NCBI GenBank assembly: GCA_022844165.1
Contig: JALHMH010000042.1
Coordinates: 1-37,554, forward strand
Reading direction: 5' to 3'
Origin: Lysobacterales bacterium
Lineage (GTDB): Bacteria; Pseudomonadota; Gammaproteobacteria; Xanthomonadales; SZUA-5
DNA: 37,554 nucleotides
In this document: in pieces, positions 8,749 through 37,554 of the stretch
How positions within the stretch are numbered: position 1 is the stretch's first letter
Layout: the number at the start of each line of letters is the position of its first letter
The notes under the pieces: generated by a model
What the model saw: only the letters and a program-made list of their open reading frames with translations
Database searches by the model: none
Told to the model about the DNA's origin: nothing
Translations under genes and position numbers: made by a program

Positions 8749-11748
8749 TCAGGGTCCGATGTAGGTGAGCCGGCGCGAGACAAAGCCGTCGACCAGGAGC
8801 GTGCCGCTGGTTCCCGGGTCGACGCCGCCGACGATGCCAAAGAGCGCCGAGGCAATCGCTTGCCCCGAGTTGTTGACGGCGGCCACGTGGCCGGCGAGGA
8901 CGCCGTCGACGTAGAGCAGCAGGTACCCGTTCGCCGCCGGAGCCTGCGCCGCACGCCACTCGATCTCGATGGAGGAGGCCAGGGAGACAGGTACCTGAGG
9001 AGTGGCTCGGAGGACACCACCGTTGTCAACAACCCGAGCGACGATCCGGTAGCCAGACGCTACGCGGCGCAGGGCCACTCGCACCTTGGCATCCGTCGAA
9101 GAGCGAACAACCAACACGTTGAACTCGTCGCCCGTGGCCATTGTGAGATTGGCGCCAGTCGGGGCCGGATTGAGCTGGAACCGCGCACGGTAGCGCTGCT
9201 GTGATTCGACAAGGTCGTGACGAACGTAGGCGACGTCAGCGGCACCACCCTGGACGCTCACGGCAAGCGACCATGGCCCGTAGCTCCCGCCGCCGGGGTT
9301 GCTCAGGGTGGTCAACGAACCTGCGCCGCCGAGGACGCTGGTCGTCCAGGCTGAAACGTCGCCGGAGTCGAACCAGTCGGCGAAGAGCTTGTCGCGGCTG
9401 CAAAGCGGATTGGCGACGGGGTCCTGCCGCGGGAATCCGAGCATCTCGGCGCCATCGGTGTTCCCGTCGCAGTCGGAGTCCGCTACGGCCGGGTCCGGAC
9501 CGACCAGTCGCTCGAAGCCATCGATGACACCGTCGCTATCCGCGTCCGCGTTGGGGTAGGCCCAGCCCAGGCACGAACGACCGTGGAGCACCTGGGTATA
9601 GCCGCTGGCGCTCATCGTCCCCAGCTCGTTGGCCGGGAAGATCGCCGTGTCATCGAGCGGAGCGTTGTAACGGCGCAGCACGGCCACGGTGCCCGCCGGC
9701 TGGCACGAGACGTCGTCGCAGGTGGTATCGGTGCCGCAGCTGGGATAAAGGTAGCCCTCAATGCCGTCGAGGTAGTAACCGGCCCCGTGGTCCGCGACCA
9801 CCTCGGTGGTGAGCACGTCATAGCGGTGATCCCGATTGTTGCCACCGCTGGCGAAGCGGCTCAGTCGATAGAGCGGCACCAGAGGCTGGCCCCCGGGAAT
9901 CGGGTTGTTTTCGGTGGACAGAACGTGGAGTGACGCCTTCGGACTGCCGTTCGGGCAGGGCGTCAGCTCGCAACCGGGCAGTGTGCCCGGAACCGCAGGG
10001 CCGATCGTCGAGTACGTGGCGCCGTTGCTACCCCGGACCGCCGCCACCGCCATCTGCGGCACCGAGGTGTAGAAGTGATCGGTGGCGGTGCTACCGTAGA
10101 GGCTGTACAGCGGCGTTGCGCGATTGCGGATCACCCGGCCGGCGATTCGGCCGAGCGTGTCCTCCACGTTGCCCAGCGCGTTCGGGTAGCCGTAGCCGAG
10201 TTGTGGGGTCCATTGAGTTGCCTGGCTTGCGCGGCTGATCATCCCGGCCCGGATGCTGTCGTGACTCAGAACGGGATCGACCGACCGCAGCAACCCGGCA
10301 AGACCACTGATGTGCGGTGCCGCCATCGAGGTACCGGTGCACAGCCCGTAACCCGTGCCAGCGCCCGGGAGGCCGCTGTCGGCGCAGCCGGTACCGGGGT
10401 TATGGACCTGGCCAGTGTAGAACGTGGAAACCACGTCCCGTGCCGGTGCAACCAGCTCTTGCTGCGCGCCTGTGTTGGAACCGAAGCCAGAGTTGGAGAA
10501 CCAGAGGTTAGCCGGGAACTGGAGACCGCCGACCGCGATCACCCGTGGATCGCGCGCGGGAAACGCGATCTGCTGGGCCGTTGAGTTTCCCGAAGCCGCC
10601 ACCATGGTGACCCCCCTTCTATGCGCGTGGCGCAGCGCCGAACAGTAGGCGATCTCGTTGGTGGGCGGCGGCTCGGTCACAGTGCACGCCGGATGGATAC
10701 TTTTGCCGAAGCTCATGTTGATGACCTGCGCGCCCATGTCTACCAGGCGTGTGATGGCCGCAACGATGTTCTGGTCTTGCTGGATTTGTGTCACGTCGGC
10801 GTTATGAATCTGGCAAGCGACGTTGACGCAGGGTATCAGGTTGCTGGTGCGAGCGAACATCAGGCCGTTGCTCCAGCCAGAACCGGCGACTCCGGTGGAG
10901 TTCCCGGTGGTGGCTGCGATGATTCCGGAGACGTGTGTGCCATGGCCGGCGAAGTCCGTCACTCCGATCTGGCCGGGAGTACCGCCGACGACCGTCTCGG
11001 GCTGCAGCTCGTCGACACAGCGGTCTGGCTGAACCGGGTTGCCGACGTCGACGGCGAAGCGGCGACGGAAGTTGCCTTGCTGGAAAAGCGTGGTACCACC
11101 CACGCGGTGAAAGGCCCGCAGATCCTCGTGGCCGGTCTCGAAGCTGACGCCGGGGCAGTCGGGGGTCTGGATCTCCAGTCCGGTGTCGGCCACGCCGACG
11201 TAGCCGCGGCCGCGCGCATAGTCCCACGCCGCAGGAAAGTTGAGGAGGTGGAGGCCCCACTGCGGACCCTGTGTGCCGGGCGTTTGGGGGAAAAGGGGAT
11301 CGTTCGGTTGCAAGAACAGCTCGACGGTACCATTTTCCTCCACCGTCCGCACACTCGGGTCGCCTAACAGAATCTGTGCGGTGGCTTCGAGATCGGTCGA
11401 GGCGGGGTAAGCGATTACGACAGCCCTCTCGAGTCGAGCCCGTGGATCTTCCGGGTTGGCTTGCAGCCACGCCAGGAAATCGCCGGATGCGCGCTCAGCC
11501 AGCAGCGGGCGAGCGGCGATAGGGCTGCCGCTGGAAAACGCCCCGGGTAGAGCTTCGTGCTTGCTGATCGCATCAGCCAGGTCGTCGGGCGACGGGGCTT
11601 GCGGCGCGGGAGCCAGCATCACGATCAATTCGGTAATTGGGGATTCGGCGAAGGTCGGCTGGGCGTAACCGGCCAGGATGCCGAGCATAGGTAGGCTACA
11701 GAGCAACGCGGCTCTGTCAGCTCGAGACCTGTGAGTACTTCGGAACAT
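8749..11748 (-). CDS. Secreted S8 family serine peptidase, multidomain
   Basis: Triad VADTG / HGTHVSG / GTSMAAPH, oxyanion ASGN; AAGGAG RBS before MFRSTH; PLY..DHFYT-type repeats, DxDxDG Ca-binding repeats and a C-terminal beta-rich domain. Confidence 0.92.
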   Translation of the reverse strand: MFRSTHRSRADRAALLCSLPMLGILAGYAQPTFAESPITELIVMLAPAPQAPSPDDLADAISKHEALPGAFSSGSPIAARPLLAERASGDFLAWLQANPEDPRARLERAVVIAYPASTDLEATAQILLGDPSVRTVEENGTVELFLQPNDPLFPQTPGTQGPQWGLHLLNFPAAWDYARGRGYVGVADTGLEIQTPDCPGVSFETGHEDLRAFHRVGGTTLFQQGNFRRRFAVDVGNPVQPDRCVDELQPETVVGGTPGQIGVTDFAGHGTHVSGIIAATTGNSTGVAGSGWSNGLMFARTSNLIPCVNVACQIHNADVTQIQQDQNIVAAITRLVDMGAQVINMSFGKSIHPACTVTEPPPTNEIAYCSALRHAHRRGVTMVAASGNSTAQQIAFPARDPRVIAVGGLQFPANLWFSNSGFGSNTGAQQELVAPARDVVSTFYTGQVHNPGTGCADSGLPGAGTGYGLCTGTSMAAPHISGLAGLLRSVDPVLSHDSIRAGMISRASQATQWTPQLGYGYPNALGNVEDTLGRIAGRVIRNRATPLYSLYGSTATDHFYTSVPQMAVAAVRGSNGATYSTIGPAVPGTLPGCELTPCPNGSPKASLHVLSTENNPIPGGQPLVPLYRLSRFASGGNNRDHRYDVLTTEVVADHGAGYYLDGIEGYLYPSCGTDTTCDDVSCQPAGTVAVLRRYNAPLDDTAIFPANELGTMSASGYTQVLHGRSCLGWAYPNADADSDGVIDGFERLVGPDPAVADSDCDGNTDGAEMLGFPRQDPVANPLCSRDKLFADWFDSGDVSAWTTSVLGGAGSLTTLSNPGGGSYGPWSLAVSVQGGAADVAYVRHDLVESQQRYRARFQLNPAPTGANLTMATGDEFNVLVVRSSTDAKVRVALRRVASGYRIVARVVDNGGVLRATPQVPVSLASSIEIEWRAAQAPAANGYLLLYVDGVLAGHVAAVNNSGQAIASALFGIVGGVDPGTSGTLLVDGFVSRRLTYIGP

Positions 11749-11834
11749 AGATGCTCCTTTCGGATTTGTGTGGGTTTGCCAGCGCACGACCGGTAAGGCC
11801 GTGCGCAAACAGCATCAATTCGCGCGACGCAAAG

Positions 11835-11937
11835 AGTCCCGATGTTTATGCGATTTTTTTGCGATATCGAGCGCTGAGCATTCGATTTGCGAGGCCGGGG
11901 CGCCGTTCGTCGCCAAGGCCAGATGCCTGGATCAAGC
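11835..11937 (-). promoter_or_regulatory. Putative wHTH binding site/promoter block upstream of the S8 peptidase
   Basis: TGCGAT direct repeat at 11-bp spacing (11849, 11860) inside a block that is conserved with 8601-8679. Confidence 0.55.
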
Positions 11938-12133
11938 GCCTGAATGCCTCCTCCAGTAGCGCACCGGTCAGCGAGCAAGCTGATTCTGGTAAGTCCAATG
12001 GTGGCAAGGCGGCGATTCTGCCGGCTGGCTTGTAGGTACCTGCGGATCGTTCGGCGTTACATCCCGCTTAGCAATCGTCTGCAACAAAACCGGCACTATG
12101 CGTGTGCCCCAGACTGATTGCGTTTGATTACAA

Positions 12134-14329
12134 GTGACACATCCTGCTCACGAACCGCCGGGACATGCGTTCGAATTCCGCCGGCTCTTGCTGGGCAATC
12201 GATTGGTCGATTTCGATGCGCACCGAATTGCCTATGGTGGCGCGGAGCTGCGGATTCGCCCCAAATCGATGGCGGTCTTGTGCGCTTTGGTCGCTGCGAA
12301 AGGTGAGCCGGTCTCCCGCGAGCAATTGCTGGATCGCGTTTGGCCGGAGACATGCCCCACGGACGAAGTTATCACGCAGGCCATCGTCGAACTACGACGG
12401 GCGCTGGATAGGTCGTCCAATCCTTTGTGTTGGATCGATACCATCCCCCGTGTCGGCTATCGATTGGTTGGTGAGGTTCGAGCGAGCAACGACGAGGACA
12501 GCGACCATCCAAGCATCTTAGCGGATGCAGCGAGCGCGGCGGCGGAGGTCCGCGTATCAGTTCAGCCTGGCGCTCAGGAAGAAGCTCAAAAGAGTGCCCA
12601 GTGGCCACTCAGAACGCTGTGGCTCACAGGTGCTGTGGGCATCTCCCTGCTTGCCGTCGTCGCCGTGCATTCGCGCGTGGGACCCGGTCCGGGCTCCCTC
12701 GCCACGTCGCCGATATCGTCGCCTGTCGTGACCTGGCTGACATCCAAACCAGAACGTGAAATGTATCCGTCGCTATCTCCGGATGGTTCGCAATTCGCAT
12801 ACACGGAGAGCTCCGCCAGCGGCGGTCGATCGCGAATCGTCGTCCGCGATGTGGACGACGCAGCCAGCCTCAGGATCTTTAGTCATCCGCCGCCAGGTCA
12901 CTACGATACGTACCCCGCGTGGTCGCCTCGCGGCGATGCCATCGCCTTCATGCGCGGCGCTCGCAACTCGTGCGCAATTCTGCTGAAGTCGCTCAGCGGG
13001 AATGAGCGAAAGTTGATTGACTGCGGAGCCAATGTTCTCACCTATTTGGAGTGGCATCCCGATGGCCGTCGTTTGTTGACGTTGCGCAAACCAGCAGATC
13101 CCGGGGTTTGCACTATGATCCATCTGGTCGACGTTGAGACCGGCGAATCGAGCGCGCTTCCTTACACGCCGCTGCCCATCGGCCGATGCGACGTTGAGGC
13201 GCGCATTTCGCCCGATGCACGTTGGATTGTTTTTCGCCGCGGTCGAGCACCCAATTCCGACCTCTGGCTCGTGCCGGCTGTCGGCGGTACGGCTCGTTTG
13301 CTGGCACCCCTGGACGCGGAAATCCGCGGTTTCGATTGGCGCGACGATAGCGCCTCGCTGCTCGCCTCTTCCGACCACGAGGGCGCTCGCGCTCTGTACC
13401 TCGTGTCGTTGAACGGCGATGTCGAGCAGGTGAGCAAAGAGGCATTGCTCTTTCCGCGCACCGCTACGTCGGTGAAACTTGCTGCGGCGCACGTCGAGCA
13501 GCGACTCGTTCGGATTCGGGCCGCGCCCGCCGATGGCAATGTCGTGCCAACCGCCGCAAGCCGATCCGATTTCATGCCTCGGCCAGCACCGCACGGGTCG
13601 CGCCTGGCCTTCGTCTCGCAGCGAAGCGGCTCGGACGAGATCTGGCTGCACGAGGCCGGATTGCCTGCGCCGAGGCAGTTGACCTCAATGGGCAGTGGTC
13701 GCTTCGACAGTCTGGAATGGTCAAGCGACGCGCAACATCTGGTCGCCGTGAATCGAGGATTGACGGGTCGGATGCACATCATCGATGCGACCACCGGCGA
13801 GTCGCGCGCCTTAACCGGCGAAGACCAAAAGGTGCGATTCGCCAGCTTTGGCCGTGATGGTCGATTCATCTATTACTCCAGCAATCGCGGCAGTCGCTGG
13901 CGCATTTGGCGTATGCGTATCGATGGCAGTGGGGCCGAGAGCCTCTACGATGTCGATGCGATCGATCCCCGTGAGGCGATCGATGGTGCTTTGTTCTACG
14001 TAAAGGAATCGGCCGTGGGATTGCACCGACTCGACCTGCAGAGTTTTGAGGAACGGCAACTGACCACGGAGGTCTGGTTGCACAACATCGGCGAGTACAC
14101 GGTGCACGAAGATGCAGTCCGGTTCGTGGCATTGAGCAGCCGTGGCAAGCAGCAGTTGATGTTTCAGTCCTGGCGTGGTCGCAATGAGCTCGACGAGCCG
14201 CAGCCCGTAGCGGTCGAATTCAAGGACCCACTTACGGCCGGCGAACTGGTCCTCGCCGCCGATCAACAGCGCTGGTACTACACCGTGATCGAACACGAAA
14301 GCACGGACATCGCTTTGGTCCGATGGTAA
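12134..14329 (+). CDS. CadC/ToxR-like membrane regulator: winged helix + TM + PD40/TolB-like beta-propeller
   Basis: [34 protein letters not shown] (Trans_reg_C), one TM helix, repeated [27 protein letters not shown] blades. Confidence 0.9.
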
Positions 14330-33104: not shown

Positions 33105-33811
33105 ACACGTATGGACGCCTCCTGTCAACACCTGATCTGCTGTTAGCTCTTGCTTGAAAGTTGGTTGTTTGAGTCAAAGTCGTCCCGTCTCGAAGATCGA
33201 GTTCGGTATGCCGCGATATGTTGGATTTCTGTTGCGAGTTCTGCTTCGTTCCAGCGTTTCGATCGACTTTCGCGCACATCGGCGGTACGGTTCTCGGACA
33301 CGTATACGGCGTCTTGGTGGTGCCTTGTGTTGCGCACCGCGCCGGGATGACATTCGACTCTGGCTGGCCCTAACAGCCACGCTGGCTGGCCCTAACAGCC
33401 ACGCGCGTTCGAGACGCGTGTCCCAGACGGGCTCTTGCCAAAGACGGTGACCGTTTCGCTTCATCGCGGAGAGAGGCTTTCGATGGCTGGGTTCCGCTCC
33501 TCTGTTGCCCGTGCTCTTTTGCTCTTCAGCTTTTACCTGCCAAACGCTTAGCTTTTGATCTTGGCTTTGATCGCTTCATGCTCACGCCGCAGCCTTCTCG
33601 CGCTTGGGCCGGAACGCTCGCTCTGCGGTGTATTCGGTCTCGCCGCGAGCCACGGCCCAGCCGATCCGCGCCAGCTTGTTCGCTAACGCCACAATGGTCC
33701 GCGCGCGGCCGCGACGCGCGGCGAGATCGCAAATCCATTGGCTCTTCGCATCCTTGCCGCGGTGCGCCCAGCGCACCACCGCTCGCGCACCGTGGATGAG
33801 CGCGGTGCGCA
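33105..33811 (-). mobile_element. IS110 family (IS1111 group) remnant: transposase C-terminus, downstream non-coding region and right end
   Basis: RTALIHGARAVV..VALANKLARIGWAV (33582-33812), ~470-bp non-coding region, then TTGACA-GGAGGCGTCCAT sub-terminal end typical of IS1111 elements. Confidence 0.8.
33360..33403. repeat. 22-bp perfect tandem duplication
   Basis: ctggctggccctaacagccacg x2. Confidence 0.95.
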
Positions 33812-34321
33812 CGATTTAAAAGCTAACTGCTCGACGACGAAGCAGCTCTTGCTGCGGCGATGGCATACGTTGATCTCAATCCAGTTCGCGCCGGCATCGC
33901 CAATAGCGTCGACAGCAGCGATCACACCAGCGTCCAGAAGCGCGCCGAGGACTTACGCAACGACCCAAGCAAGGCCGATGCGCCGCTGATGCCATTTACT
34001 GGCGTTCGCTTGGGAATTGCCGTTTTCAAGAGCGACACCTTTTCGCGACTGGCGATCAGCAATCGCCAGTACTTCGAGTTGGTGGACTTCACCGGCCGTC
34101 AGATCAAGCCCGGCAAACGCAGCAAGATCGACGAGCGCGAACCATCGGCGCTGAGCAAGCTTGGGCTCGGTGCCGATCAATGGACCGGCGACGTCAAAGG
34201 CATCGGCTCCGGGTATTGGCGATGGGTCGCGAGCGTAGAAGCGCTGGAAGCCAAAGCCGCAGAGTGGAAGCGGCAGTGGCTCAAGGGCATCGGCTATGCC
34301 CGGAGTCTTGCGACCCGGTGA
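33812..34321 (+). pseudogene. Y1 HUH (RAYT-like) transposase, C-terminal remnant
   Basis: RFKS*LLDDEAALAAAMAYVDLNPVRAG..SDHTS..YFELVDFTGR; in-frame TAA at 33824; N-terminal HUH part absent. Confidence 0.8.
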
Positions 34322-34443: not shown

Positions 34444-34493
34444 CGATGGATGTCCAGTTCTCCCGGCGCGATGGATGTCCAGTTCTCCCGGCG
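34444..34493. repeat. 25-bp perfect tandem duplication
   Basis: cgatggatgtccagttctcccggcg x2. Confidence 0.95.
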
Positions 34494-34778
34494 CTCGACC
34501 ACGGCCGATGTCCTGGCAACACAATCCACGGCGAACTCGGCTATGTAACCCCACTCGCCACCACCGCTGCCATTGGAGATCGGCGCCAGAGAGCCAAGAA
34601 ATGCACGTGGCAGCAGCCCACGAAACGAGAGGCCAAATCAGCGCAAATCGCCCCACGTCGATCCCGCAACATCCAACCGCGACAATACCGCCACTCATGA
34701 CATCGAATTCGACCGATGTCGCGACGACACCCTCCAAAAGCTATTTCCTTGGGCGCGACACACGCCACGCAGGGGCTC

Positions 34779-34833
34779 GTCCAACAAACGCTTCAGATCG
34801 CGGCTGCGCGCGATCTAAGCTTATTCGTTGGGC
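34779..34833 (+). other. attC-like site (asymmetry suggests + orientation)
   Basis: GTCCAAC-aaac-GCTT(C)AGATCGCG..CGCGATCTAAGC-ttattc-GTTGGGC. Confidence 0.7.
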
Positions 34834-34839
34834 GCGAGG

Positions 34840-35052
34840 CTACGCGGCAACGTCAACAAAACGGCTGGACGAATGCGGTGCCGGAAAAGGCTGTCCCATG
34901 TCTCGGAGGCCTTCAAGATGGAACTCAATGGCTTCCTGAATAAGCGCAAGAACCTCTTGCTCGGACTCACCTGCTGCGACGCACCCCGGAAGGTCAGGCA
35001 CATAAGCGCCATAGCTGCTTGGTCCCTTTTCAACGACAACCATGTAACGCAT
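34840..35052 (-). CDS. hicB: HicB family antitoxin
   Basis: MRYMVVVEKG..YGAYVPDLPGCVAAGES..IQEAIEFHLEG. Confidence 0.93.
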   Translation of the reverse strand: MRYMVVVEKGPSSYGAYVPDLPGCVAAGESEQEVLALIQEAIEFHLEGLRDMGQPFPAPHSSSRFVDVAA

Positions 35053-35056
35053 AAGC

Positions 35057-35248
35057 TCACTCCTTCTCAAGCCCAGCTTGCTTCAACGCGCTGTTGAGTG
35101 TGCCGGGCGGAACTTCGACACTGGGTCTGCCGGCAACAGTGACCGTACCCGGCTTCGAAGGATGATGAAACTGCCGGTGACTTCCCTTTTGTCGCACCTG
35201 GCGCCAACCATCTGCTTCAATAAGCGCTATGAGGTCTTTGACTTTCAT
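35057..35248 (-). CDS. hicA: HicA family toxin
   Basis: IEADGW..RQKGSHRQF.HP.KPG.VTV..GTL.S.LKQAG. Confidence 0.95.
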   Translation of the reverse strand: MKVKDLIALIEADGWRQVRQKGSHRQFHHPSKPGTVTVAGRPSVEVPPGTLNSALKQAGLEKE

Positions 35249-35279
35249 GCGGCAAGAATGGCACAGCTTACTTTCCTAT

Positions 35280-35348
35280 GCCCAACGTTTGAATTCAGCC
35301 GACCGGACGGCGCAGCCGGCCAGGGTCGGCTGCAATGAGAGGTTGAAC
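35280..35348 (-). other. attC site
   Basis: Minus strand: GTTCAAC-ctctc-ATTGCAGC..GCTGAAT-tcaaac-GTTGGGC. Confidence 0.88.
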
Positions 35349-35578
35349 GAAGCCGCTACGCGGAGAAGTGGTCTTCGGGATGAGGATTGCGGCGTAATCT
35401 TCACGGGCATTCCTTCGCGGACCGGGGGAGTGATTGTGCCTTCAACCGTGAGGAATGACTACCATGACAGGCTTGTCCGACGAACAAGATCGTGCGCGCT
35501 TTGATGCGCTGTATCAGTGCCACCTGAAGCACCTCAAACTCAAGGGTTTGCAGCCCAAGACCATCGATGCCTGTGCGA
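35342..35578 (+). mobile_element. Truncated left end of an element encoding a tyrosine-recombinase N-terminus
   Basis: First 117 bp identical to 37438-37554; ORF from 35464 MTGLSDEQDRARFDALYQCHLKHLKLKGLQPKTIDA resembles the SAM-like N-domain of integrases paired with IS91-family transposases. Confidence 0.7.
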
Positions 35579-35789
35579 CACCATCAATGTTGTTAAAGAT
35601 CAGGAAGTTGCCTAGGTCCGATGCGCCACGCATATTCGCGGCGGTGAGTACGGAGTTGGGCTCAATTCGCTCCTCTACCCAGCGCGGGACCTCTTCTGGC
35701 TCCTGAAAGATCGCGTTCTTCGCGGAGTCCGGATCACCGCGATAGACGATCTCAAGTTCGTATTGCGATGAACCGGGCGGCAGGTGCAT
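35579..35789 (-). pseudogene. 3'-truncated gene cassette ORF
   Basis: ATG 7 bp after the GTTAGGC core (MHLPPGSSQYELEIV..); runs into the integrase remnant and has no attC of its own. Confidence 0.55.
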
Positions 35790-35796
35790 TTGTGAG

Positions 35797-35863
35797 GCCT
35801 AACGTTCGAATTCACCGGCCTGGGCGGCTTTTCGCGCAGGTCCCGTGGAATGATGGGTTGGGC
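35797..35863 (-). other. attC site
   Basis: Minus strand: GCCCAAC-ccatc-ATTCCAC..GGTGAAT-tcgaac-GTTAGGC, directly after a stop codon. Confidence 0.9.
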
Positions 35864-36391
35864 CTATTCGGGGCCGAGCGTGACATGCCAAGCAAAACAA
35901 TTTGCTAACCGTTCCGGAATGCCTGATGCGTTCTGTTTCACCCACTCGGCCACCTCACTGGTTTCGAAGATCGTTGCGGCGCCACTCCACGCGGCCAGCG
36001 GTTTGGCGCCCCTGATCGGGTTCTCTGAATAGAAGAAGTAGGGGCTATCCCCAACACTCGCATCGGAGAACACGATATACCAACCATCGCTCTTAAACGA
36101 CGCGAACACGGACACCTTCTTCAGCCTCTGCTGTTTGGCGATTGCGACCTCAAGCCGAGCCTGTTGCTCAGCCGTTAGCCCGCGGCTAACGCCAGCGCAT
36201 GGAGTTGCATTGACCCACGCAATCGACTGCTCATATTGCCGCTGGGTGATGTCCTTGTTTCGAAGCGCCTCGGCAAGAGTTTTCTCCAAGCGAGCCTTGT
36301 CTTCGGCGGAAAGCGGAGGTTCGGTCGGACCATGGTCGGCCCAAGCAGCAAGGGTAGTTCCAAGCAGCAGGGTAGCCAGCAAGCGCTTCAT
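35864..36391 (-). CDS. Cassette-encoded secreted hypothetical protein
   Basis: MKRLLATLLLGTTLAAWAD signal peptide; ORF fills the space between GTTGGGC and GCCCAAC. Confidence 0.8.
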   Translation of the reverse strand: MKRLLATLLLGTTLAAWADHGPTEPPLSAEDKARLEKTLAEALRNKDITQRQYEQSIAWVNATPCAGVSRGLTAEQQARLEVAIAKQQRLKKVSVFASFKSDGWYIVFSDASVGDSPYFFYSENPIRGAKPLAAWSGAATIFETSEVAEWVKQNASGIPERLANCFAWHVTLGPE

Positions 36392-36397
36392 GAATAG

Positions 36398-36486
36398 GCC
36401 CAACGTTGGAGGTGAGGCGGCGCATTTTGAATTAGGAACATCGCCCTTCTGACGAGGTAGCCGCTTGACGACGAGCACAGTTGTCT
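36398..36486 (-). other. Degenerate attC site
   Basis: Right half intact (ccgcctcacc-tccaac-GTTGGGC); left half poor (AGACAAC..cgtcaagcgg). Confidence 0.55.
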
Positions 36487-36507
36487 CACGGTCGCTCCCT
36501 TCTCCGG

Positions 36508-36828
36508 CTACAAGTACGCAACATTCTTGATTAGTACAAGCTTGTCTTCCGCCAGGCCAGCAAGCTGTTCTTCCTGGATCCGGCCTTCCCGCAGTAGATG
36601 GCCAAAAACGAAAACCAACTGGGAGTATCGGTAGTCGTACTTCGCATCTATGTCTCGTTGTCGGGCCTCAAGGTGGGTGCGAACTTCCCACATCTCTTCA
36701 GGCTTCGCTGCTGCAGCAGCCATCGCCTTGAATTCAGCGAGCGTTTCGGCGAGTTCCGCCTCGAGCGCAAACTCGAACAATTTGCGCGACAGACTCTTCT
36801 CGGCATTTGACCACTTGAGGTGGTGCAT
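36508..36828 (-). CDS. Fluorescence recovery protein (FRP)-like protein, gene cassette
   Basis: WS.AE..LF..A...EL..W....L...R.ID.KYD.R.S...FVF..LL.EG......L..LA.DK pattern, 106 aa; GGAGG RBS. Confidence 0.8.
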   Translation of the reverse strand: MHHLKWSNAEKSLSRKLFEFALEAELAETLAEFKAMAAAAAKPEEMWEVRTHLEARQRDIDAKYDYRYSQLVFVFGHLLREGRIQEEQLAGLAEDKLVLIKNVAYL

Positions 36829-36847
36829 CGAGGCCTCCCTTTGCGCC

Positions 36848-36937
36848 GCCTAACGCGCAGCCAAGCGGCCGCCGCTTAGCGGTGTTTGGTCGAAGCAACC
36901 CACTAGAGCGGCGGTCCGCTTGAGCATGATGATGGGC
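36848..36937 (-). other. attC site with mutated R'' box
   Basis: Minus strand: GCCCATC-atcat-GCTCAAGCGGACCGCCGCT..AGCGGCGGCCGCTTGGC-tgcgc-GTTAGGC. Confidence 0.8.
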
Positions 36938-37010
36938 AGCGGTGCTTTGCTTTTCAGATGCATTTATCCGCCTGACGCTGACGAATTGGCAAGTCTTGAG
37001 GTTCGAGCGC

Positions 37011-37373
37011 TCACGCCGGTGCTCTGCGCTGGGCGCATTGAGTCACATGAATTAAGAATGGTCTGAACAAGCGCTCGTAAGGTGGGATGAGAAGATTGTG
37101 AGGTACTGATTCGTCGAGCGATCTGGCGCTGGCTCTCGCGAGGGTCCAGTTGTCACGTCGGCCTACGAATGTGAATTTCCACCAAGCCCACTCGCCGGAT
37201 CGCATCAGTACAACATGCTCACCAAACACTTCTGTCTCGAAAGTGACGCCTGACAGAATCTCGTTAAGGCTCTCTTCGACAGGCTCGTTCGGGGGCATCG
37301 AGTACCGCTGCGACTTGACCGTCTCCCAATAGCATTGAACAAACCGTTCGGCGAATGACTCAAACGTCGCCAT
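37011..37373 (-). CDS. Cassette-encoded hypothetical protein
   Basis: 120-aa ORF MATFESFAERF.. starting 11 bp after a GTTGGGC core. Confidence 0.65.
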   Translation of the reverse strand: MATFESFAERFVQCYWETVKSQRYSMPPNEPVEESLNEILSGVTFETEVFGEHVVLMRSGEWAWWKFTFVGRRDNWTLARASARSLDESVPHNLLIPPYERLFRPFLIHVTQCAQRRAPA

Positions 37374-37384
37374 GGTCGGATCCC

Positions 37385-37444
37385 GCCCAACGCCCAGCAT
37401 CAGCGGCGGCGCGCAGCGCCGTCCGCTGCATGCTGCTGTTGAAC
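37385..37444 (-). other. attC site
   Basis: Minus strand: GTTCAAC-agcag-CATGCAGCGGACGGCGC..GCGCCGCCGCTGATG-ctgggc-GTTGGGC. Confidence 0.9.
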
Positions 37445-37554
37445 GAAGCCGCTACGCGGAGAAGTGGTCTTCGGGATGAGGATTGCGGCGTAATCTTCAC
37501 GGGCATTCCTTCGCGGACCGGGGGAGTGATTGTGCCTTCAACCGTGAGGAATGA
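37438..37554 (+). mobile_element. Second copy of the element left end, running off the window
   Basis: Identical to 35342-35458. Confidence 0.85.

Follow-up and report, generated by a model that had tools for sequence, protein, structure and literature searches.

Gene capture in multi-resistance is mainly the work of integrons, and ISfinder contains integrase-carrying members of the IS91 family of insertion sequences (ISs). The two subjects meet in the locus described here, a stretch of 37,554 nucleotides (the window), corresponding to contig C42 of the 59-contig assembly of an uncultured Lysobacterales bacterium, which probably contains three partial copies of an IS91-family member homing to attC, the cassette recombination site, within a chromosomal integron. 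Two kinds of attC parasites were known previously, the IS1111-attC elements (ISPa21, ISPst6) and the group IIC-attC introns: they are described as inserted antisense to the cassettes, close to the 5' end of attC (PMC3001079). The element of the window shares with both the specialisation for attC and the same insertion geometry, but not the enzymes, which are a DEDD transposase in the former and a reverse transcriptase/ribozyme in the latter, unrelated to those of the element; moreover, neither of them has been described with an attC-like site or a tyrosine recombinase. An IS91-type element endowed with both an attC mimic and a recombinase would be a third kind.

For the IS91 family, the literature reports palindromes at the ends, a terIS cut after GTTC or CTCG, targets CTTG, GTTC and GTCC next to oriIS, and an antisense (bottom-strand) single-stranded circle as the active intermediate (PMC13181058). 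The element resembles IS91, IS801 and IS1294 in its Y2-HUH transposase, featuring the Zn_Tnp_IS91 and Y2_Tnp domains, in the absence of long terminal inverted repeats, in the subterminal palindromes found at both ends and in the GTCC/GTTC tetranucleotide at the ter-like end. It differs, however, from these family members in several respects: the palindrome of the right end mimics attC in full; the target appears to be, in place of a strict tetranucleotide, either the attC core RYYYAAC, seven bases long, or GTT-R-N-R-Y; GTT is found at both junctions; and the recombinase gene is apparently recoded at a run of eight adenines (A8). Integron cassettes and their integrase, IntI, share with the element an attC-type hairpin with complementary R'' and R' cores, a bulged L stem and an exchange at GTT, and its recombinase is about equally close to IntI and Xer; unlike a cassette, the element is inverted, lies at R'' and is autonomous. 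ISShvi3, in a Shewanella integron, is also an IS91-like sequence lying next to attC in the variable region, a likeness which holds at the level of its description, and the authors of that study stated that attC was not interrupted by any IS (PMC9229058). A literature search, performed without ISfinder, TnPedia and subscription journals, returned no description of attC targeting, of an attC-like end or of integrase recoding in IS91-type elements.

An earlier note on this DNA, prepared from the sequence, had reported an identical 117-bp sequence, beginning with GTTGAAC, in two different attC sites. The observation holds exactly: positions 35342-35458 and 37438-37554 are identical at 117 of 117 bases, both start with GTTGAAC, and each is preceded by a different attC-like hairpin. 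The match may be extended to 134 nt at 95% identity, because the two host attC sites are themselves similar just upstream of the repeat. Four more starts of the same 117-bp end are found in the genome (C8:127945+, C8:121167-, C13:376- and C55:23507+), and within this group of six left ends all alignments lose similarity exactly upstream of GTTGAAC. Four right ends are also present, in the window (up to 34829) and in contigs C8, C3 and C27, so that six left and four right ends, all with sharp boundaries, are found in total. The element does recur in the array, as the note had stated, and the copy at 35342 is fused to a truncated cassette: its match to the other copies stops at 35570, element position 229, where cassette DNA follows, and the corresponding deletion appears to run from element position 230 into the cassette open reading frame (ORF) at 35571..35789. 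Contig C55 ends at the same element position as the window, C13 begins within a copy and C27 begins with a right end. A degenerate copy of 1,555 bp in C8 (C8:127945-129499) contains internal deletions and an inserted repeat of about 160 bp.

The inserted repeat (C8:128377-128536) occurs in dozens of copies over the contigs of the genome, as well as in G001, a genome of the same genus (92-94% identity), and in more distant relatives (about 70-75%). A second and more distant IS91-type tnpA gene (41-44% identity), interrupted by a frameshift and a stop codon, lies at C8:123130-124199, 4 kb from the degenerate copy. In the window, an exact tandem duplication of 25 bp (34444-34493) coincides with the truncation point of the copy 1 right-end remnant.

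Relatives of the transposase are numerous: 265 were found in a scan of one genome per species, and the best 80, 57-100% identical and including 14 from one genome, were fetched with their surroundings. The left-end motif was recognised in 65 of these 80 loci, and in 42 of the 65 the right end was also seen, at 2.2-2.45 kb from the left one, with the exception of locus L090, where a further IS lying within the copy brings the distance to 3,996 bp. Both the hairpin and the left end are still linked to the pair of genes at TnpA identities as low as 32-40%, as seen in Salinivibrio, Thiothrix and an E. coli plasmid; in a relative from Herpetosiphon, whose integrase is truncated, the end motifs were not recognisable. 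A search of the DNA of 39 relatives' genomes mostly returned matches to the repeat of about 160 bp found in C8, along with one related element in genome G009, where both genes are present in full. The search of plasmids found no close relative (best identity 41%), and the pairing of an integrase with an IS91 transposase is annotated on several of them. An element with related integrase and IS91 transposase genes (38% TnpA identity) is present in a class 1 integron on the E. coli IncC plasmid NZ_LT985243.1 (record positions 10940-13288); this copy occurs in full in just one of 72,556 plasmid records, and a plasmid of Shewanella sp. ANA-3 contains a stretch which matches its right end at 94.9% identity.

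The analysis of the right ends changes the picture in one essential respect. The hairpin at 34779-34829 had been taken in the note for a third host attC, and the element had been proposed to have no fixed attC of its own: neither claim survives the comparison of the copies. The four genomic right ends share their sequence up to ...CTTATTCGTT and differ from there on (GGGC, AGAC, AAGC and AGGC), the shared part covering GTCCAAC, the stem, the loop and the return stem, all kept in four cases out of four. A hairpin of the same type terminates the element in other taxa, where 21 further distinct right ends were collected. Because it is conserved at all right ends, while the bases following GTT differ, the hairpin is a part of the element and not of the host. 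The alignment of 22 distinct right ends supports its conservation as a structure: of its 12 inner pairs, 5 have changed on either side of the stem, 99.4% of the cells are paired, versus 20-39% when the partner columns are slid, and none out of 500 shuffles matches the covariation values observed.

The left end consists of GTT followed by GGAC in 63 of the 65 loci, and by GAAC in this genome, in the plasmid copies and in L116, a metagenome contig retrieved with the left end of the window. Next come GAAG and a CCGC-loop-GCGG hairpin, whose loop is variable. Read on the antisense strand, the end becomes CCGC-loop-GCGG, CTTC and GTCC (GTTC in the lineage of the window), an arrangement which looks like the terIS of IS91. 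When the two ends are joined in silico, the GTCCAAC of the right one pairs with the GTTG(G/A)AC of the left one to complete an attC-like hairpin: for the virtual junction the folding energy is -24.5 to -29.7 kcal/mol, versus about -15 +/- 2.5 for shuffled sequences. Features typical of cassettes are thus present at both extremities, the element starting with TTGAAC or TTGGAC and ending with GTCCAAC ... G|TT. The GAAC or GGAC adjoining GTT belongs to the element, not to the host, whose bases are a variable RYYY, and the IS91 target tetramer GTTC, invoked in the note, does not explain the site. As for the matching inverted end proposed near 34785, an imperfect inverted repeat does exist, 35342-35375 and the reverse complement of 34752-34785 being identical in 21 of 35 columns, mostly within the first 24, and it corresponds to the outer stem formed on joining the ends, but no inverted pair of ends was found in the window by a repeat search with seed 12 and length 20.

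The target was defined by comparing the host sequences at the junctions. At both left ends of the window, the flanking host attC has the imperfectly palindromic form RYYYAAC ... GTTRRRY, an L stem and one arm with additional bases, and cassette ORFs begin 12-20 nt from the attC cores; both sites are attC-like by the arm test described below, and in the one at 35280-35344 the spacers measure 6 and 5 nt and the extra bases are on the arm next to the element. Contig C27 contains the only integron integrase of the genome above the family cut-off (827-1771, 465 bits). To the left of this intI gene, on the opposite strand, lie an attI site (G|TTAGGC), a 186-aa cassette ORF and an R'' core, GCCTAAC, including the stop codon; since the bases after its AAC are the reverse complement of the right end, the element is placed antisense to the cassettes, in the R'' core of the first cassette. 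The copy on NZ_LT985243.1 is also antisense, located between aadA1 and qacEdelta1 and inserted in attC-aadA1 at GTCT^AAC: the aadA1 stop codon and GTCT are on one side, while the remainder of the site, from AAC onwards, continues on the other into the 3' conserved segment. Here the attC bottom strand has its two extra bases on the arm adjoining the element, and this site was used as a calibrator.

Flanks were scored for their likeness to attC by aligning the two arms, with the near spacer fixed at 5 nt, and control GTT sites were drawn from the same loci. Two fold-based detectors (terminal AAC/GTT pairing; single enclosing hairpin) were dropped, as they missed obvious sites, and so was a regular-expression scan, which found one attC in the window. 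Left flanks are attC-like in 5 of 6 cases in this genome, in 22 of 42 distinct sites from other genomes and in none of 14 from an Accumulibacter genome. Leaving this last genome aside, 27 of 48 element sites are positive, compared with 72 of 3000 controls; the figure of 22 out of 42 is a minimum, as several sites among the 20 negatives look like attC by eye. Of the 27 attC-like sites, 25 have their longer arm next to the element, and the L-box columns lie at a fixed register relative to GTT. Together with the copies in C27 and attC-aadA1, this agrees with the note in placing the end of the element at the R'' core, antisense to the cassettes.

At the genomic right ends, the four host bases are a variable RYYY (GCCC, GTCT, GCTT and GCCT). 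The adjacent GTT/AAC is practically invariant: it is found at 67 of 67 left junctions and at 54 of 55 true right junctions, the exception being a GGT at the right junction of L087. Its presence at both junctions reflects either a three-base region of identity or a seven-base target. As judged from these junctions, insertion evidently occurs at GTT-RRRY, mostly the R'' core of a host attC, and always leaves the sense strand of the element continuous with the attC bottom strand.

A complete element spans about 2.4 kb, and includes, from left to right, the left end, a gene for a Xer/IntI-like tyrosine recombinase, one for a Y2-HUH transposase of the IS91 type and the right end. The ORF at 35455 starts with MTTMTGLSDEQDRARFDALYQCHLKHLKLKGLQPKTID, corresponding to the N-terminus of a tyrosine recombinase. 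The note had recognised this likeness and had predicted the pairing with an IS91-family HUH transposase; both predictions are confirmed by more extended copies. The degenerate copy in C8 matches the Pfam families Phage_int_SAM_4 (2e-13) and Y2_Tnp (2.9e-12), and L116, whose left end is identical to that of the window, provides an intact copy of the same lineage, with the N-terminal part of the recombinase, its catalytic part in the -1 frame and the IS91 transposase in this order, and with an attC-like hairpin next to it. The recombinase of locus L053 (303 aa, encoded in one frame) matches Phage_int_SAM_4 and Phage_integrase, and its TnpA matches Zn_Tnp_IS91 and Y2_Tnp, as well as NF033538 with 356 bits (cut-off 125).

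Within the tyrosine recombinases, the best NCBIfam model for the enzyme is that of integron integrases, TIGR02249, at 162 bits, well below the cut-off of 265 and the 465.7 bits scored by the host IntI; the XerA, XerC and XerD models score at the same level (148-158 bits). The closest relatives of known structure in the PDB are XerA (4a8e and 5hxy) and IntI4 (2a3v), with E about 1e-25. Identity to the host IntI is 28%, and in the pairwise alignment a gap lies opposite host IntI residues ~197-222, the insertion specific to IntI being absent.

The catalytic part of the recombinase is out of frame with the N-terminal part in 73 of the 76 loci holding both. The gene is split by an A8 run, CTAAAAAAAAGAT, in L094 (3834-3841), in L116 and in most loci from L035 to L114, the catalytic HxxR...Y part following in the -1 frame; this run marks the frame junction in 55 of 61 distinct sequences, while three of the others have A9, two A7 and one no run at all. 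In L053, an A9 variant, the gene is read through in one frame. The A8 run points to programmed -1 frameshifting or transcriptional slippage, and its conservation, along with that of the separate reading frames, suggests that the recombinase is under selection.

Activity of the element would not depend on the host integrase, because 14 copies are present in a genome without any IntI above the cut-off. The 14 copies fetched from this Accumulibacter genome (G039) share about 98% identity or more and occupy unrelated sites, none of them an attC, with the consensus GTT-R-N-R-Y. No match at the IntI cut-off was found in the assembly, for which completeness is not given, the best score, 88.6 bits, being that of the element's own genes. 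The suggestion that the element recombines by its own means, without depending on host IntI, is in line with these data. Two other host genomes do have intI, in one case about 10 kb from a copy. Some Accumulibacter copies show peculiar ends: in L095 (5430-5473) a tandem duplication affects the terminal 22 nt of the right end, and in L093 and L106 (5452-6192) an internal tnpA segment of another copy comes after the right end, an arrangement which indicates a nested insertion.

In the mechanism that we propose, the transposase would copy the element out as a single-stranded circle, the circle would fold into the attC mimic, and the recombinase of the element would join it to the RYYYAA^C core, in the way IntI handles cassettes. 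The sequence of the antisense strand is RYYY|AAC-hairpin...hairpin-CTTC-GTCC|AAC and, because it carries IS91-like ends, the transposase could make an antisense circle; this could in turn present the bottom strand of the attC mimic, the one recombined by IntI-type enzymes. The recombinase is favoured as the integrating enzyme because the exchange point lies within a conserved stem, because GTT is found at 67 of 67 left and 54 of 55 right junctions, and because the single exception, the GGT of L087, is at a right junction. That the labour is divided in this way, with an IS91-type circle pasted in by the recombinase, is a possibility to which we assign slightly less than an even chance; the transposase alone comes next, and what remains is shared by other divisions, including some with the help of IntI. 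The full model, a two-enzyme transposon whose HUH circle acts as an attC mimic, and whose recombinase, switched on by slippage at A8, would paste it into RYYYAA^C cores with a preference for the R'' side, the strand unused by IntI, is put forward tentatively.

The same ends can be accounted for with one enzyme. The transposase alone might move the element by classical IS91 rolling-circle transposition: the hairpin would be the oriIS palindrome of this subgroup, the RYYY of R'' would be the target tetranucleotide, perhaps read by pairing with GGAC, and the recombinase would have an auxiliary part, for instance in regulation, in dimer resolution or in targeting. Orf121 is known to modulate IS91. 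We consider this explanation doubtful, although it has much in its favour. IS91-family ends feature subterminal palindromes, a terIS cut at GTTC or CTCG, and CTTG, GTTC or GTCC targets by oriIS, and TnpA is reported there to insert single-stranded circles by itself (PMC13181058); correspondingly, the antisense end of the element shows ...CTTC-GTCC/GTTC beside the CCGC-loop-GCGG hairpin, and the host flanks GCCC, GTCT, GCTT and GCCT are all of the form G-Y-Y-Y, like GTTC and GTCC. What it explains less easily is that the four host bases are loosely conserved, yet the adjacent GTT/AAC is nearly invariant, given that IS91 is described as strict for its tetranucleotide (PMC13181058). The exchange point, moreover, lies inside a conserved, covarying stem, the usual substrate of a tyrosine recombinase, and the recombinase itself is conserved along with its recoding signal. 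The GGT of L087 varies at a position where a cut after GTT would forbid it, but this is one case and could be a mutation.

Two further explanations were weighed. The element might be an ordinary gene cassette carrying an IS91 element and moved by the host IntI, as suggested by the TTGAAC following G at its start, by its attC-like end with the last G before TT, as in cassettes, and by the intact intI of the array; the IS91-like ISShvi3 beside attC is indeed called 'a new gene cassette structure' in its description (PMC9229058). A constant attC was the mark by which the note would have recognised a common cassette and, as far as the same hairpin is carried throughout, it is there; nevertheless, the element is inverted with respect to cassettes, lies at the R'' and not at the R' boundary, and multiplies outside integrons, as witnessed by the 14 near-identical copies at non-attC sites of a genome without IntI above the cut-off, while hairpin and left end stay with both genes down to 32-40% TnpA identity. 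We regard this possibility as very unlikely. Even less credible, to the point of being practically excluded, is an element without an attC of its own, both ends of which are core boxes borrowed from host attC sites: both ends do adjoin heptamers with the pattern of attC cores, and about 24 nt at the extremities form an imperfect inverted repeat, but the hairpin to the right of GTCCAAC moves in its entirety along with the element, as seen in this genome's four right ends and in the 21 from other taxa, and its conservation next to host bases that differ after GTT refutes this reading.

Several observations also weigh against the attC-homing element with two cooperating enzymes, which we prefer. 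The window retains just 229, 117 and 338 nt of the element, and no intact copy is present in the genome assembly, where tblastn found the degenerate C8 copy, fragments and one more distant, decayed IS91 sequence. The arm alignment on which the attC counts are based is a home-made test with a fixed near spacer, applied to the best 80 of 265 loci, 14 of them from one genome, and 20 of 42 sites from other genomes, in addition to all 14 from Accumulibacter, fail it. The recombinase is below the IntI cut-off and does not have the IntI-specific insertion. Local GC skew, taken as a proxy for the replication strand, has no consistent sign at the 14 Accumulibacter loci (9 negative and 5 positive). Finally, the ends also fit a pure IS91 model, with a terIS carrying GTCC or GTTC, an oriIS palindrome and G-Y-Y-Y flanks, and the transposase alone might suffice.

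If the two-enzyme reading is true, the element would represent a third, mechanistically new class of attC-homing elements, and a plausible relative of the origin of attC sites and of IntI-type single-strand recombination. It would also offer a naturally occurring example in which one hairpin is the substrate of both an HUH enzyme and a tyrosine recombinase, and a testable role for the unexplained integrase gene of some IS91 members. The element is widespread, with 265 relatives in genomes taken one per species, in addition to the relative found in a class 1 integron. Its insertion would part a cassette from its attC, and repeats in the same orientation would promote deletions. Assemblies of the arrays are broken by it as well, four contig ends of this genome falling inside copies. 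The features of the window are collected in Table 1.

Table 1. Remnants of the element, host attC sites and neighbouring cassettes in the window
Feature	Position	Strand	Description
Copy 1, right-end remnant	34492..34829	+	338 nt; 97.3% identical to positions 1218-1555 of the C8 copy
Copy 1, content		+	Last 17 tnpA codons (34493-34546), non-coding tail, own attC-like hairpin; frame read against the C8 ORF
Attc-like site of the element	34779..34829	+ (top strand)	GTCCAAC, 4-nt spacer, 12-bp stem with one bulged C, loop, 6-nt spacer, GTT
Junction of copy 1 with the R'' core of the hicAB cassette attC	34827..34833	-	GTT shared; GGGC from the host (GCCC|AAC on the cassette strand)
hicA/hicB toxin-antitoxin cassette	34840..35248	-	HicA_toxin 3.6e-22, HicB_lk_antitox 6.3e-13; hicB stop at 34840
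Host attC hit by copy 2	35280..35344	- (top strand)	R'' replaced by the left end of the element; hairpin -17.5 kcal/mol
Copy 2, left-end fragment	35342..35570	+	Element positions 1-229; 99% identical to positions 1-229 of the C8 copy
Copy 2, content			Shared GTT, element GAAC, CCGC-loop-GCGG terminal hairpin, 5' leader, recombinase codons 1 to ~38; ATG at 35455
Cassette ORF lacking its C-terminal part and its own R'' junction	35571..35789	-	ORF 35514..35789 reads into element DNA
Host attC hit by copy 3	37385..37440	-	Score 22; far spacer 6, near arm 2 nt longer
Copy 3, left end	37438..37554	+	First 117 nt, then contig end

The hicAB cassette and its upstream attC (34830-35344) have on one side the right end of copy 1 and on the other the left end of copy 2, two copies in the same orientation: the cassette could be moved or deleted by IS91-type read-through or by homologous recombination. 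The truncated cassette ORF at 35571..35789 has no Pfam match. A further cassette ORF (36508-36828, minus strand) matches the FRP family (PF18032, 3.5e-18), FRP being the fluorescence recovery protein of cyanobacterial photoprotection. To the left of the right-end remnant lie two ORF fragments, at 33582-33812 (minus strand) and 33860-34321 (plus strand), without significant Pfam matches, which, judged by eye, resemble the C-terminal portions of an IS110-type and of a REP-associated/IS200-like transposase, respectively. Near the distal end of the array, at 33357-33400, a 22-bp tandem repeat with GGCCCTAAC is found, which may represent attC debris.

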